Below are positions 26,660 to 48,448 of a DNA stretch of 64,000 bases, piece by piece. Numbering within the stretch: the first letter of the stretch is position 1; each line of letters starts with the position of its first letter. Position numbers and translations under genes: made by a program. Origin of the DNA: an uncultured Muribaculaceae bacterium. GTDB lineage: Bacteria; Bacillota_I; Bacilli_A; RF39; UBA660. The DNA lies in contig CAZKSN010000002.1 of the NCBI GenBank assembly GCA_964555585.1, forward strand, positions 1,293 to 65,292, in the 5' to 3' direction. The notes below the pieces were generated by a model. The model was not told where the DNA came from. It saw nothing but the letters and a program-made list of their open reading frames with translations, and made no database searches.

Positions 26660-26869
26660 TTATTGATATCTACTCATTTGTTTCATCAATTGATTAACCT
26701 GTTTTTGACTTGGATTTCTTCCCATACCCCTCATTAAAGCTTTTATCATTTCCTCATTAACAGGTGGATTTTCTTTTAACTGTTTTGTCATTAATTTTTT
26801 TGCAATTAGAAATCCTGCAACTAAACCAAGAACAATTCCTCCCAATACATATAAAATATCAATAATCAT
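26660..26869 (-). CDS. yneF: UPF0154 family membrane protein YneF
   Basis: N-terminal transmembrane helix, then MIKALMRGMGRNPSQKQVNQLMKQM. Confidence 0.7.
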   Translation of the reverse strand: MIIDILYVLGGIVLGLVAGFLIAKKLMTKQLKENPPVNEEMIKALMRGMGRNPSQKQVNQLMKQMSRYQ

Positions 26870-43727: not shown

Positions 43728-43765
43728 TATAATAATTTTAACAAAAATTTATTATTCTTTCAAAT

Positions 43766-43790
43766 AAAAAAGTCAGTATAAACTGACTTT
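43766..43790 (-). terminator. Terminator hairpin, copy 1 of a 25-nt repeated element
   Basis: AAAAAAGTCAGT-ataa-ACTGACTTT. On the minus strand it reads as hairpin plus T-run. Its 25-nt core is identical to 44966-44992. Confidence 0.5.
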
Positions 43791-43796
43791 AATAAG

Positions 43797-44840
43797 TTAT
43801 CTTTTATTCTCCTTTGAAATCTCATAGTTCATAATCATATTATTTATAATAACAGGATAAAATTCTTCAATATTTTTATATGTATCTCGATTGTTTTCAT
43901 ACATGATTAGAGAATTAAGTATATTGTCTATATAAATAAATCCTAATCCTCTTTCTGCATTAGTTCTTTGTTCATACCTAGAAATATCTCCTGTTACATG
44001 AAGTCTATATCTTAAAGTAAGAGCTCTAATTATATGTTCATTAATTATTGTTAAATTATCTCCATAGGCTTGATTCTCCATAATTTCAAATATTTCACTA
44101 AATATTGTATCATCATCTTTAATAATATTATACTTATCAGTTAAAGGATTAATAAAACTATGACTAAATTCGTGATGTAACAAATAAATTAAGCCATTAG
44201 GAATTGTTTCATCCGGAAATATTTCAGTTTCTTTATCTGTTTCATGAGAACCACAAATATTTGAATATAAATCATTGTTAATATGAATACCATAATTTCC
44301 CCAAGTTTGAAATGGTAAAAGATTTACTATAAAATTATTTTTATTTGGTAAATTATAATAATTTAATATATATTCTATTAAATTGTTACTACCAAGTTGA
44401 GATAAAGTATTATTAATAAACATGCTATATCTTGCTTTATTCTGTTCATAAAATTTTTCGAAATCTATCTCTTTTGCAAAACTTTGAAGTAAATCTAACA
44501 TTTCTATTACTCTAGAATCACTTTCCAGCCTTGTTTTAAATGGATAATCTTTTAAACTCGTATATGAGAAATCATCATTTAACTGCAGAAATAAATCAAC
44601 TGGAGCATCATAGCTAAAATTATCATTTAAAACTATTTCATCAAATAGTTTTACAACCCTATGATCTTTATACTTACCGAATTGTCTCTCAATCTGTTCT
44701 ACATAGTCCTTATTACCATGTTTTTCTAATAATTGTGGAAACTTTTTTCTATAATTACTTATTATTTGGATTATTCCTAACAATTCTGTTTTTCTATCTA
44801 CTCTAATTTCAATAAAACCACTTTTTGCACTTACATTCAT
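43797..44840 (-). CDS. HExxH-motif protein (putative zinc metallopeptidase-like, DUF4932-like)
   Basis: LIYLLHHEFSHSF contains an HExxH motif. No transmembrane helices or signal peptide are evident. Confidence 0.45.
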   Translation of the reverse strand: MNVSAKSGFIEIRVDRKTELLGIIQIISNYRKKFPQLLEKHGNKDYVEQIERQFGKYKDHRVVKLFDEIVLNDNFSYDAPVDLFLQLNDDFSYTSLKDYPFKTRLESDSRVIEMLDLLQSFAKEIDFEKFYEQNKARYSMFINNTLSQLGSNNLIEYILNYYNLPNKNNFIVNLLPFQTWGNYGIHINNDLYSNICGSHETDKETEIFPDETIPNGLIYLLHHEFSHSFINPLTDKYNIIKDDDTIFSEIFEIMENQAYGDNLTIINEHIIRALTLRYRLHVTGDISRYEQRTNAERGLGFIYIDNILNSLIMYENNRDTYKNIEEFYPVIINNMIMNYEISKENKR

Positions 44841-44965
44841 AATATTACATCAAACTCCATAATACTTATTAAATTAAGTATATCATATTTATAATAAGTA
44901 TTGAATCATGATTTGTCTTATTCATTCTATTTACTTTAATTAACATATATAATTAATATTTATAC

Positions 44966-44992
44966 AAAAAAAGTCAGTATAAACTGACTTTT
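44966..44992 (-). terminator. Terminator hairpin, copy 2, directly abutting the stop of bacteriocin peptide B
   Basis: AGTCAGT-ataa-ACTGACT with flanking A/T runs. It is identical to copy 1. Confidence 0.5.
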
Positions 44993-45152
44993 ATAAACTA
45001 CAAGTATTTTTATTAATTAGTCTTCTAATTGCAGTTCCTAAACATCTTCCTACATCTAAAGCGGCGTTTATAGCTCTTACAAAAGCATTTATTAATGTTC
45101 CTGATATTAGTGAACCACCATTAATATAAAATAGTTCTTCTTTTTCTAACAT
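44991..45152 (-). CDS. Bacteriocin-like prepeptide B with a double-glycine leader (53 aa). It is not in the ORF track.
   Basis: Manual minus-strand translation gives MLEKEELFYINGG|SLISGTLINAFVRAINAALDVGRCLGTAIRRLINKNTCSL*. The leader has GG at -2/-1, hydrophobics at -4/-7/-12 and E at -8. The mature part is 40 aa, cationic, with 2 Cys. Confidence 0.6.
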   Translation of the reverse strand: MLEKEELFYINGGSLISGTLINAFVRAINAALDVGRCLGTAIRRLINKNTCSL

Positions 45153-45158
45153 ATAATT

Positions 45159-45293
45159 TTAACGGCATTTAAGAGGTCTAAGGTATCCATCCACTACTCC
45201 AATTAAGAAAACAATTATTCCAGTCATCGCAGTAATAAAACCCCAACTTACTGCTCCAGCAGATACATTTAGTAGTTCCTCTGTTGTTAGCAT
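45159..45293 (-). CDS. Bacteriocin-like prepeptide A with a double-glycine-type leader in AG/GA variant (44 aa). It is not in the ORF track.
   Basis: MLTTEELLNVSAG(A)|VSWGFITAMTGIIVFLIGVVDGYLRPLKCR*. Its leader is homologous to that of peptide B. An AGGAGA RBS precedes it. The ATG overlaps the ABC gene stop (ATGCTAA). Confidence 0.55.
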   Translation of the reverse strand: MLTTEELLNVSAGAVSWGFITAMTGIIVFLIGVVDGYLRPLKCR

Positions 45294-47362
45294 ACTTCTC
45301 CTTTCTGATAAAACTCATATTTATGCTCAAATAATTTTTTTATTTCTTTTTTATGAGATATATAAATTATAGTTTTATCTTTATATTTATTAAATATTCC
45401 TTTTATAATTTCAATTTCTTCTTTTAAACCGACTTCACTTAAAGCTTCATCTAAAATTATATAATTACTATTCTTCAATAAAGCTCTTGCTAAAATAATT
45501 TTTTGTCTTTCACCTCCACTTAAGTTAAAACCATTTTCTTCAATATAAAACATATTTCTAAATTTTTTATCATCTCTTATTTTATTCACTTTACATAATT
45601 TAATAATTCTCTCATATTCTTTCAAAGAAATATTTCTATCCAGAATAATATTATTAATTAAAGTATCTGAAAATAAAATTTCATTTTGCGAAACATAAGT
45701 AAAAGAATTTTTAATTATATCATTATCTATATCTAATAAATTATAATTATTAATATATATATCCCCCTCATAGTTATTTATATATTTTAATATAATTTTT
45801 ATTAAAGTACTTTTTCCTATCCCACTTTTTCCATATATTAATAACTTGTCTGTCTTCTTTATTTCTAAGTTTATATTACTAAAAGCATAATTTAAGTCAT
45901 TATATGAAAATTTTAAATTTTTAATTAAAATATTTCCTTCAATCATTTTTTTATTTAAATAATTTGAATTTTCTGGAGTTATCATTATTAAATCATTAAT
46001 TCTGTCATATGCTGTTTTTAAATACCTTAAATTTGGTTCTAAATCCATTAATTGTTTTATCGGCTCTAAAAATAGTAACAGTAACGTATTAAAAACGACT
46101 AAATCCCCAAGAGTAATTATATTTTTATTTACGTAATATGTACCGATACTTAGAATAAATAAAACTCCGATTTCAAAAATATTGTTTTTAATAAAACCTT
46201 GTTTTATTATTGAATCTTCAAAACTCTTAATTTTTTGCATAAAACCAATGAAATTTACTTTTAATTTTTCAATAATTTTAGAAGTTATATTTAAATTTTT
46301 TATTGTTTCAAATCCTTCAACAGCTTCAGTTAGATTTTTATTAAATTCTCCCTCAGCTGTTTGAATCAAATATATTTTTCTCTTATAAATATTTGAAAAT
46401 ATTACTACAACAAATATATACAATACCACCATTAATAATAAAATATATAATAAATTTTTATTTATAATAAATAATACTGTTAAACTAATAATAATTAGAA
46501 ATATATCAATAAATATATTTATAAATATTTGGGAAGCAATTTCTCTAAAATTATTTAATTCATTGATTCTACTTATTACTTCTCCAGTTGGTTTAGATTT
46601 AAAAAATTGATATGGGAGGAACATAATATGTTTAATGGATGAATTTGTTAAATAAATATTTATTAGATTATTTATTTCAATCAGCAATTTACCTCTAATA
46701 AAACTAAACATATTTTTCAGGAATATGATAACTAAAAAAATGAGTGTTGCACTTATTAAAACAGTATTTGAATAACTAATTAAGAATATATCAATAACGA
46801 GTTTAAAATAATAATTGTTTATAATTGTAAAAATTATTATAAATAATGAAAGTATAGATATATTAATAATTGTTTGCCTTTTTGTCATTATTAATTCAAA
46901 AATATCTTTTATTATATTTTTTTTATTATTTAATTCAGGTATTGTTTTTATAGGATAAAAATATAGAATAGTGCCTAAAAACATTTCATTGAATTCATTA
47001 AAAGAAACTTTTTTAATTCCATATGAAGGATCCATTAGCTTTATATATTTTTTATTTTTATTTATTTCATATATAACAATAAAATGTAATAAATTATTTG
47101 TTCTTACATGTGCAATTACCGGTAATATCTCACAGTTTTCAAATAATTCTCTAGAAGTTTTTCTCATTCCATAGCCATCAAATCCTATTTTTTTCATTCC
47201 TTCAATCATATTTAAAGCATTTGCTCCATTCTGATCCGTCTTTATTAAATACGATAATTCCTCTCTGGCAATATCTCCATTATAATACCTAATTATTGAT
47301 AATAAACAACTGACACCGCAATCCTTGATACCATTTTGTCTTACTATGTATTTTCTACTCAT
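45287..47362 (-). CDS. Bacteriocin-processing ABC transporter with an N-terminal C39 peptidase domain (LagD/SunT/ComA-like)
   Basis: C39 motifs QNGIKDCGVSCL (Gln/Cys) and LLHFIVIY (His). A six-helix transmembrane domain follows. Walker A GKSGIGKST, signature LSGGERQK and Walker B ILDEA. GGGAGG RBS. Confidence 0.85.
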   Translation of the reverse strand: MSRKYIVRQNGIKDCGVSCLLSIIRYYNGDIAREELSYLIKTDQNGANALNMIEGMKKIGFDGYGMRKTSRELFENCEILPVIAHVRTNNLLHFIVIYEINKNKKYIKLMDPSYGIKKVSFNEFNEMFLGTILYFYPIKTIPELNNKKNIIKDIFELIMTKRQTIINISILSLFIIIFTIINNYYFKLVIDIFLISYSNTVLISATLIFLVIIFLKNMFSFIRGKLLIEINNLINIYLTNSSIKHIMFLPYQFFKSKPTGEVISRINELNNFREIASQIFINIFIDIFLIIISLTVLFIINKNLLYILLLMVVLYIFVVVIFSNIYKRKIYLIQTAEGEFNKNLTEAVEGFETIKNLNITSKIIEKLKVNFIGFMQKIKSFEDSIIKQGFIKNNIFEIGVLFILSIGTYYVNKNIITLGDLVVFNTLLLLFLEPIKQLMDLEPNLRYLKTAYDRINDLIMITPENSNYLNKKMIEGNILIKNLKFSYNDLNYAFSNINLEIKKTDKLLIYGKSGIGKSTLIKIILKYINNYEGDIYINNYNLLDIDNDIIKNSFTYVSQNEILFSDTLINNIILDRNISLKEYERIIKLCKVNKIRDDKKFRNMFYIEENGFNLSGGERQKIILARALLKNSNYIILDEALSEVGLKEEIEIIKGIFNKYKDKTIIYISHKKEIKKLFEHKYEFYQKGEVC

Positions 47363-47414: not shown

Positions 47415-47444
47415 ATAAAAAAACTACATCATATGTAGTTTTTA
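47415..47444 (-). terminator. Terminator hairpin between the epimerase gene and the bacteriocin operon promoter
   Basis: AACTACAT-cat-ATGTAGTT, flanked by A7 and T4 runs. It overlaps the stop of 47429..48448. Confidence 0.45.
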
Positions 47445-48448
47445 TATTCTTTACAAAATTTTGATAATAATTTCAAATTATGTGTTTTCTTTGCAATTAA
47501 AGGTTCGGATTTTTTTTGTAAAATATTTATTATAAGAAAACTTATCATTCTAGTAAAAAATCTTGTTATATTTTTTGTTTCTTTTCTTACTTTTCTATAA
47601 TAATCATCTAAATTTTCACTTCTGTGATGCAATAAAACTTCCAAATCATCTCCATCCTGTAAATAACCACAATGAAAATTATAATTTGCAAAAGCCACTG
47701 CTTTCAAATATTTAAAGTTTAATCCATAATGTTTAAACATATTCTTCAATAAGTCTCTATAAGTAGTTCTGCACAATTTTCCACCACTTAAATTAAATGT
47801 TTTATTATTTAATAAATCAGTTTTTTCAATTGCATTTACAAAAGCTCTGGCAGCATCTTCTGAAGTCAAGATCTCCATACAAGTATCAAGTGGCATATGA
47901 AACATCAATGGATCAACAGCTGGCTTATAATTCATTATAGCAGTTAATCTGAATATAGAATAATCTATATTTGATTTTCTAATAAGTTCCTCACATTTAA
48001 TTTTTAATTCAGCATAATAGTCATTTCCGGAATTTAATTTATCAGTAACTTTTATATACGGATTTTCAATTCTGTCTCCATAAACCGCTATTGAAGAAGA
48101 AAACAACAAAAATCCTTTACCATTTTCTTTTATTGCTTCCACTACATTTTTTGTTCCTTCGAAGTTTACTTTATATGCCTTGGTTGGATTTTTATCAGCA
48201 GCTGGAGGAATAATTGCAGCCAAATGTATTATAACATCAAAATCTTTTATAATTTTTTTAACTAAGTCTTCATCAGTTATATCCCCATACTTAATATCTA
48301 TTTTCCCTTCAAATGATGCAAACTTCTTTCTTACATTTCCTTTATCAACATCAAAGACTGTAATATCATATTTATCTTTTTCCACTAATTGCTCCAATAC
48401 TTCATAACCAACATTTCCACTTGCACCAGTTAATAATATTTTCTTCAT
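47429..48448 (-). CDS. NAD-dependent epimerase/dehydratase family protein (atypical SDR)
   Basis: N-terminal TGASGNVG Rossmann motif and a YAELK catalytic Y-x3-K. Confidence 0.7.
   Translation of the reverse strand: MKKILLTGASGNVGYEVLEQLVEKDKYDITVFDVDKGNVRKKFASFEGKIDIKYGDITDEDLVKKIIKDFDVIIHLAAIIPPAADKNPTKAYKVNFEGTKNVVEAIKENGKGFLLFSSSIAVYGDRIENPYIKVTDKLNSGNDYYAELKIKCEELIRKSNIDYSIFRLTAIMNYKPAVDPLMFHMPLDTCMEILTSEDAARAFVNAIEKTDLLNNKTFNLSGGKLCRTTYRDLLKNMFKHYGLNFKYLKAVAFANYNFHCGYLQDGDDLEVLLHHRSENLDDYYRKVRKETKNITRFFTRMISFLIINILQKKSEPLIAKKTHNLKLLSKFCKEYKNYI

Follow-up and report, generated by a model that had tools for sequence, protein, structure and literature searches.

Two-peptide (class IIb) bacteriocins such as lactococcin G, plantaricin EF/JK, lactacin F, and ABP-118 have leaders of the double-glycine type, which are 15-30 residues long and are cleaved after GG, and an immunity gene is described as a constant part of their operons (PMC2850506). 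Comparisons in this work follow the class IIb criteria set out in that review by Nissen-Meyer et al. The locus described here lies in a 64,000-nucleotide (nt) stretch, hereafter the window, of contig CAZKSN010000002.1 from an uncultured gut bacterium (assembly GCA_964555585.1, labelled Muribaculaceae and placed by GTDB in RF39). It consists of an exporter gene followed by two short open reading frames (ORFs), A and B. The exporter's best solved relatives are the peptidase-containing ABC transporters (PCATs) ComA from S. pneumoniae (PDB 8hf4) and PCAT1 from C. thermocellum (PDB 4ry2). We put at roughly 60% the probability that A and B are a class IIb-like two-peptide bacteriocin pair, made as coupled precursors in a self-contained operon and exported by the adjacent PCAT.

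The exporter and the two peptide genes

The features of the locus are as follows (aa, amino acids; SD, Shine-Dalgarno sequence).

45287..47362, minus strand: PCAT of 691 aa, identified by Pfam domains and ComA/PCAT1 alignment
45298..45303, minus strand: SD AAGGAG of peptide A, 4 nt before the A ATG, within the exporter 3' end
45159..45293, minus strand: peptide A precursor, 44 aa, ATG start, TAA stop, MLTTEELLNVSAGAVSWGFITAMTGIIVFLIGVVDGYLRPLKCR
45255..45293, minus strand: A leader, MLTTEELLNVSAG
45162..45254, minus strand: predicted mature peptide A, 31 aa, AVSWGFITAMTGIIVFLIGVVDGYLRPLKCR
44991..45152, minus strand: peptide B precursor, 53 aa, ATG start, TAA stop, MLEKEELFYINGGSLISGTLINAFVRAINAALDVGRCLGTAIRRLINKNTCSL
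45114..45152, minus strand: B leader, MLEKEELFYINGG
44994..45113, minus strand: predicted mature peptide B, 40 aa, SLISGTLINAFVRAINAALDVGRCLGTAIRRLINKNTCSL
47419..47443, minus strand: terminator-like AT-rich hairpin with T-run, overlapping the epimerase stop codon upstream of the exporter, -12 kcal/mol, z = -5.1 relative to shuffles
44969..44992, minus strand: intrinsic-terminator-like hairpin with T-run, sharing 2 nt (44991-44992) with the B stop, -12.6 kcal/mol, z = -4.3

The exporter scores above the Pfam cutoffs for Peptidase_C39 (95 bits), ABC_membrane (99 bits), and ABC_tran (83 bits). ComA and PCAT1 align with it over the full length at an E value of about 1e-85 and have the three-domain architecture, the Gln/Cys/His residues, and the ATPase motifs in common with it, although the window exporter is only ~30% identical to them. 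Its residues Q9, C15, and H93 are aligned to Q11, C17, and H96 of ComA, and Q9 sits six residues ahead of the Cys, as in ComA. We infer that D111, which sits in a DPxxG motif, is the catalytic Asp, and the assignment goes no further than this because the ungapped alignment to ComA is offset by 2 residues. The ATPase motifs are Walker A GKSGIGKS, LSGG, and IILDE. The protein has the make-up that defines a PCAT, namely an N-terminal C39 domain with catalytic residues, an ABC membrane domain, and a nucleotide-binding domain. On the NCBIfam model TIGR01193 (peptide cleavage/export ABC transporter) it reaches 366.8 bits against a curated cutoff of 523.85, and is therefore a divergent relative. It is predicted to be the leader-cleaving exporter of A and B, so that its substrates would be a peptide pair and not a competence pheromone. 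The PCAT1 entries hold the transporter and its CtA substrate only, and likewise no accessory protein is encoded beside the window exporter. A GGGAGG SD lies ahead of the exporter ATG, and the 3' end of the gene overlaps the ATG region of A by 7 nt. A related locus from a reindeer metagenome-assembled genome (MAG), at 1131-3175 of L005, has its exporter split into two ORFs of 189 and 475 aa, although A and B are whole; a frameshift, a pseudogene, or a fault in the assembly could each explain the split.

Peptides A and B had been proposed as two short ORFs missed by the ORF track, and each is shorter than a 60-aa ORF threshold. Both lie where the original prediction put them, and both translations were reproduced exactly from the minus-strand sequence and the ORF list. 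The two are in one frame with a start-to-start distance of 141 nt, and the spacer is the TAA stop of A plus 6 nt (AATTAT), which are the two codons noted before. Across the 64-kb window, a relaxed regular expression for double-glycine leaders matched A, B, and a single further ORF, an unrelated membrane protein, compared to a mean of 0.01 matches in 200 shuffles of the window, and thus the leaders of A and B are far beyond chance. The third match, a 69-aa ORF at 26660..26869 on the minus strand that begins with MIIDILYVLGGIVLGLVAGFLIAKK, looks like a small N-terminally anchored membrane protein and not a leader peptide. Homologues of both A and B were found at E values of 1e-12 to 1e-31. Codon comparisons gave less nonsynonymous than synonymous change (pN < pS), and the median dN/dS was 0.35 (A) and 0.43 (B). 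By this comparative evidence A and B are real coding genes under purifying selection. Public gene calls annotate A, with identical sequence, on both contigs and B on one of the two, and the exact B sequence is recorded in Logan only and not in NCBI.

The A gene is preceded by a strong SD in almost all related loci, as it is here, and in most of them the motif is again AAGGAG. B is without an SD in the window and in ~22/33 relatives, and in exactly those the stop of A overlaps or abuts the start of B; where the A-B gap is ~10 nt, B has a strong SD of its own. The A-B spacing ranges from -35 to +38 nt across the related loci. Translational coupling of B to A by termination-reinitiation, as suggested earlier, is plausible in the window given this pattern, and the gene geometry in general fits with equimolar synthesis of A and B. 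An apparent A-B fusion of 102 aa (P0153, at 112-420 of L038) was considered as Rosetta-stone evidence and set aside as a gene-calling artefact, as a TAG stop lies between A and B and is followed by a strong SD for B. A second apparent fusion, P0082, looks like another such read-through.

The hairpins on both sides make the exporter, A, and B a self-contained three-gene unit, and on this ground 47362..44991 on the minus strand is taken to be one operon. The terminator scan returned 2 sites compared to 0.2 expected; the upstream hairpin at 47419..47443 falls under the G+C criterion of the scan and is hence not among its sites. A sigma-70 promoter scan was uninformative in this 23%-GC DNA (46 sites compared to 51 expected), and an Rfam search of the whole window gave no match.

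Conservation, leaders, and mature peptides

Word-indexed searches found five homologues of A and three of B. In GCA_964477325.1 (L001), a triad with the same geometry likewise occupies the site between FtsQ and PolC. GTDB species were then scanned by pattern, with one genome for each, which gave 33 loci. All come from MAGs that carry the label uncultured Bacilli, Tenericutes, Mollicutes, or Bacillales, with a few labelled Muribaculaceae that may be mislabelled; the material was sampled from humans (Hadza), mice, rabbits, reindeer, the rumen, and digesters. All ORFs of these loci were mapped with hidden Markov models (HMMs) and phmmer, and the order exporter, A, B is present in 31/31 loci that are not cut by a contig end, and also in L037 on a 633-kb metagenome contig. 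The original prediction would have fallen if relatives had no homologous peptide pairs beside C39-ABC genes, and such pairs are present at every one of these loci. When 1.84 billion representatives were scanned in full with HMMER, the A profile matched at least 311 clusters (50% identity) at E <= 1e-3, and the 150 clusters listed are mostly 40-50 aa long and nearly all matched over the full length. The B profile found at least 92 clusters at 90% identity, annotated as 'hypothetical protein' except for one 'bacteriocin-like protein'. One rumen MAG locus (L013, 9851-9991) has an extra divergent A-like gene, MSKLDNEEMLNVKGGGAALLTAFEVTSIFIFVMGFIKGYKKAPRCP, directly upstream of A and B, and is thus a three-peptide locus.

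The leaders of A and B both have G at -1, V/I at -4, L at -7, E at -8, and L at -12, as the earlier alignment of the two had it, and the consensus positions -1, -2, -4, -7, -8, and -12 are conserved in the families. Leader length is 13 aa in the window and 12-15 aa among family members. G13 is present in every B sequence and in at least 90% of A sequences, and position 12 is usually G, which makes the window's A (Ala12, giving AG and not GG) a minor variant. Cleavage after G13, giving the proposed cores of 31 aa (AVSW..) and 40 aa (SLIS..), fits with the family alignments. The alternative of cleavage after the 'GA' pair in A is disfavoured because residue 14 is variable (A/G/K/I/E/F), while G13 is conserved.

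The mature peptides of the A family are 30-34 aa long with the signature F-x-I-G-V-V-D-G-[YF]-x-R-P-L-K-C, in which G36 and C43 are invariant and conservation in the alignment is at least 90% for F29, G32, D35, R39, and P40. Those of the B family are 37-44 aa long with the pattern I-S-G-T-L-I-N...V-G-R-S-L-G-x-A-I-R-R...C, and the invariant residues are G12, G13, G18, G35, R36, G39, A41, I42, R43, and C51. A check for GxxxG motifs had been proposed, and one conserved motif was found in each peptide: G32-V-V-D-G36 in A and G35-R-C-L-G39 in B (GR(S/C)LG in the family), with glycines invariant or at least 90% conserved. AlphaFold2 models built on the family alignments show a short leader helix in each precursor and a single long helix in each mature part. 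The helix of A spans residues 17-38 with a predicted local distance difference test (pLDDT) score of 94-96 and is followed by a flexible Cys-bearing tail; that of B spans residues 14-46, with pLDDT ~90 at residues 21-40, and leads to a disordered tail with Cys51. Mature A has a grand average of hydropathicity (GRAVY) of 1.15, a net charge of +2, an isoelectric point of 9.3, and a monoisotopic mass of 3394.87 Da. Mature B has a net charge of +4, a hydrophobic moment of up to 0.67, and a monoisotopic mass of 4227.35 Da. The models and these values predict a hydrophobic helix for A and a cationic amphipathic helix for B.

Exactly one Cys near the C-terminus is found in 30/31 distinct A and 29/29 distinct B sequences at the loci, and the C-terminal Cys is kept in 143/150 listed A representatives. 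The single Cys that was pointed out near the end of A is Cys43, near-invariant across the A family. The disulfide suggested within B did not hold up as a family feature, since the window's sequence alone has a Cys at position 37, where >90% of relatives have Ser; only Cys51 is invariant. An interchain disulfide between the C-terminal Cys of A and B is an attractive reading of this conservation. No thiol-oxidoreductase gene is linked to the locus, and a literature search for intermolecular disulfides in two-peptide bacteriocins returned, by title and abstract, none on a two-peptide bacteriocin.

In three A-family clusters (P0068, P0071, and P0154) the peptide stops right after the conserved G-V-V-D-G. 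P0071 was traced to L039 and L040 and P0154 to L041, and the DNA of L039 and L041 was examined. In both (840-983 of L039 and 128-1691 of L041) foreign DNA, related between the two, breaks up the A gene and encodes a small basic ORF, MTKSQKYRIQREFRRKTFDTNPKKRLNYVHKVVRFNAYLIIE, which in L041 is followed by a 263-aa protein with a faint HTH_36 match. The insert resembles a mobile element with site-specific integration into the conserved 3' portion of A. P0071 and P0154 are thus A genes truncated by the element, and are uninformative as Cys-less variants for a test of the interchain disulfide. P0068 has the ...DGQIKLK ending in common with these two.

Likeness to class IIb bacteriocins and alternative readings

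The family-level comparison places A near known class IIb peptides. Pfam has no match for the window's A or B. Among 60 A-family members, 48 match TIGR03949 (class IIb, lactobin A/cerein 7B) at E <= 0.01, several of them over its cutoff, with 27.5 bits for P0003 (70% identical to the window's A) and 32.6 bits for P0051. Moreover, 40/60 match the lactococcin G-beta model under its cutoff, and 24/60 match Pfam Bacteriocin_IIc. The matches to these models take in the leader and, of the core, its Gly-rich N-terminal half, and reach no further than the beginning of the C-terminal signature. The stretches matched by TIGR03949, hydrophobic in their core part, end at residues 33-39, with the signature F-x-I-G-V-V-D-G-Y-x-R-P-L-K-C mostly outside them, and TIGR03949 contains nothing equivalent to the B partner. 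Relatives of B give only weak leader matches to family models. Profile searches of the PDB returned nothing except a weak leader match of A to the PCAT1 substrate CtA. In the literature searched, no paper with the GVVDGY motif was found, and the main text of the IIBacFinder gut survey makes no mention of RF39 or Tenericutes (PMC12648112).

The organisation also resembles that of class IIb, with two different small peptides side by side in one operon, leaders that have the double-glycine consensus positions but are marginal in length, and a dedicated C39-ABC exporter. The peptide genes are adjacent (6 nt apart), hairpin-bounded, and paired in 31/31 loci. The mature peptides are helical, cationic or hydrophobic, and 30-40 aa long, with GxxxG in both and a gene geometry that favours equimolar amounts. 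The proposed comparison with known two-peptide bacteriocins is borne out in part: the gene pair, the exporter, GxxxG, and the family-level class IIb matches agree, while the immunity gene and the TIGR03949 score of the window's A do not. On these likenesses A and B are probably a new family within a known kind, the class IIb-like two-peptide bacteriocins. The family differs from the described members in its 12-15 aa leaders, in an operon that in the window lacks an immunity or accessory gene, and in one near-invariant C-terminal Cys per peptide, which is not described for class IIb in PMC2850506. In addition, the predicted mature A and B sequences show unusual conservation over a wide lineage, and the family is hosted by uncultured gut Bacilli or 'Tenericutes' and not by lactic acid bacteria.

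Several observations weigh against a two-peptide bacteriocin. The window's A reaches only 14.2 bits (E 0.027) on TIGR03949 against a cutoff of 21.5, and the core of B matches no known family by family models or PDB profile search. The 13-aa leaders are shorter than the 15-30 aa of class IIb. Identity among relatives is 40-70% for A, 33-68% for B, and 31-54% for the ABC protein, so that the precursors are conserved like the exporter or more. In the window's clade the locus is fixed beside PolC and FtsQ among housekeeping genes, which is less typical of fast-evolving accessory toxins, and PolC itself has diverged to ~50% identity while the locus stays beside it. No immunity or accessory gene was found in the operon or the 64-kb window with HMMs of the two candidate proteins described below, and ~20 other compact loci are likewise without one. 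The DUF4932 protein and the 80-aa ORF downstream of the terminator, which directly follows B, were rejected as immunity proteins, as neither has a hydrophobic segment and neither is conserved at related loci.

About ten loci (L009, L011, L026, L027, L028, L031, L032, L033, L035, and L037) are extended by further genes. The first extra gene, between the exporter and A, encodes 123-153 aa with one hydrophobic segment and no Pfam match. The second, called C, encodes 48-60 aa, overlaps the end of B, and has an N-terminal hydrophobic segment, after which the C-terminal half carries a B-like G-R-x-x-G-T-x-I-R...C motif. The two genes are located in L037 as follows.

5390-5848 of L037: candidate accessory protein, 152 aa, extended locus
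6156-6335 of L037: candidate immunity protein C, extended locus

Profile-profile comparison of B and C with hhalign gave a probability of 84% and an E value of 7e-6 over 29 columns that include the motif and the terminal Cys. This match and the B-like motif make C a plausible immunity protein derived from B, and the ~140-aa single-pass membrane protein is a candidate accessory protein. L012 and L013 have the first extra gene only and L033 the second only, and in L032 the first is degenerate. Both extra genes are mostly uncalled by gene callers.

If A and B are a two-peptide bacteriocin, the C39 cysteine-protease domain would recognise the short amphipathic leaders by the hydrophobic residues at -4, -7, and -12 and the Glu at -8, and the exporter would cut after Gly13 and export both mature peptides in roughly equal amounts. 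Of the two helices, that of A (31 aa) would be hydrophobic and membrane-spanning and that of B (40 aa) cationic and amphipathic. Once exported, the pair would most likely act jointly on the membrane of competing bacteria, with their helices packed via the GxxxG motifs (GVVDG in A and GRxLG in B), and the C-terminal tails, which are flexible and keep one Cys each, may link the two chains through these Cys. The genes, the conserved triad, the domains and catalytic residues of the exporter, the conserved leaders and cleavage sites, the helical models, and the geometry of coupling are what the analysis shows; from these we infer that the peptides are cleaved and exported, that A and B cooperate, that they are antibacterial, and that a disulfide may form.

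A doubtful alternative, which nevertheless deserves weight, is that A and B are exported and processed but are not toxins, and form a signal pair or a small heterodimeric membrane or cell-surface component for the producer itself. The lack of immunity and accessory genes in the window and the ~20 other compact loci, the exporter-like or higher conservation of the peptides, the stable FtsQ-PolC position in the window's clade despite the divergence of PolC to ~50% identity, and an operon G+C (~22-23%) no different from the flanks would all suit such a role. However, Pfam context shows no histidine kinase or response regulator beside the locus, and the extreme hydrophobicity of A (GRAVY 1.15) is ill-suited to a diffusible signal. 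The pairing of a hydrophobic with a cationic amphipathic peptide, GxxxG, and the class IIb matches of the family point instead to membrane-active bacteriocins, and in a subset of loci a small membrane protein comes right after B, the typical position of an immunity gene.

It is a more speculative and unlikely proposal that the locus encodes a distinct type of two-peptide bacteriocin, in which A and B are joined by a disulfide between their C-terminal Cys and the membrane-anchored B paralogue C, where encoded, gives immunity, perhaps by mimicking B to neutralise A; loci without C would then have another route to immunity, such as the lack of a receptor, or a role that is not self-toxic. Still less probable is a single active bacteriocin of class IId, with the other peptide being an independent second bacteriocin or an inducer. 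Some PCAT loci do encode several independent bacteriocins, and L013 has its extra A-like gene upstream of A, but at all 31 loci A and B are inherited together without exception, in one order and with coupled translation, and they are complementary in their physicochemistry with one invariant GxxxG and one invariant Cys each. Chance open frames in AT-rich DNA or sequencing-error artefacts, which lengths of only 44 and 53 aa and the inconsistent calling of B by public gene callers might suggest, have a negligible probability and are already refuted by hundreds of homologues matching over the full length, pN < pS, identical gene order, and frames that stay intact in independent assemblies, which also answers the earlier concern over frameshifts from sequencing errors.

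Chromosomal setting and meaning

The operon is flanked upstream by Era, RecO, MurG, FtsQ, and an epimerase, and downstream by the DUF4932 gene, the 80-aa ORF, and PolC. The terminator hairpin past B recurs past the DUF4932 gene (window 44952-44996 and 43751-43795), with an identical core of 22 nt and 84% identity over 45 nt, and the 64 kb contain no further copy. The DUF4932 gene (43797..44840, minus strand, ~1.2 kb) has a HEFSH metalloprotease-like motif and is missing from this site in L001; given this absence and the direct repeat on both sides, it looks like an inserted or duplicated cassette. A NAD-dependent epimerase/dehydratase gene (47429..48448, minus strand) lies between FtsQ and the exporter, while in L001 the exporter directly follows FtsQ. 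The epimerase difference and the DUF4932 cassette together suggest that the FtsQ-PolC interval is a hotspot of gene gain and loss.

For annotation, the present family models name only part of the A family, and B is dropped inconsistently by gene callers. If active, A and B would define a large two-peptide bacteriocin family that is absent from Pfam, the PDB, and the literature searched. The family comprises hundreds of clusters and is confined to uncultured small-genome gut Bacilli of humans, mice, rabbits, ruminants, and reindeer. To our knowledge, almost nothing is known on how these bacteria compete. The peptides are short and unmodified, so that they can be synthesised and tested directly, and concrete hypotheses for the assembly of the pair and for immunity to it follow from the Cys that each chain conserves and from the membrane protein that resembles B.

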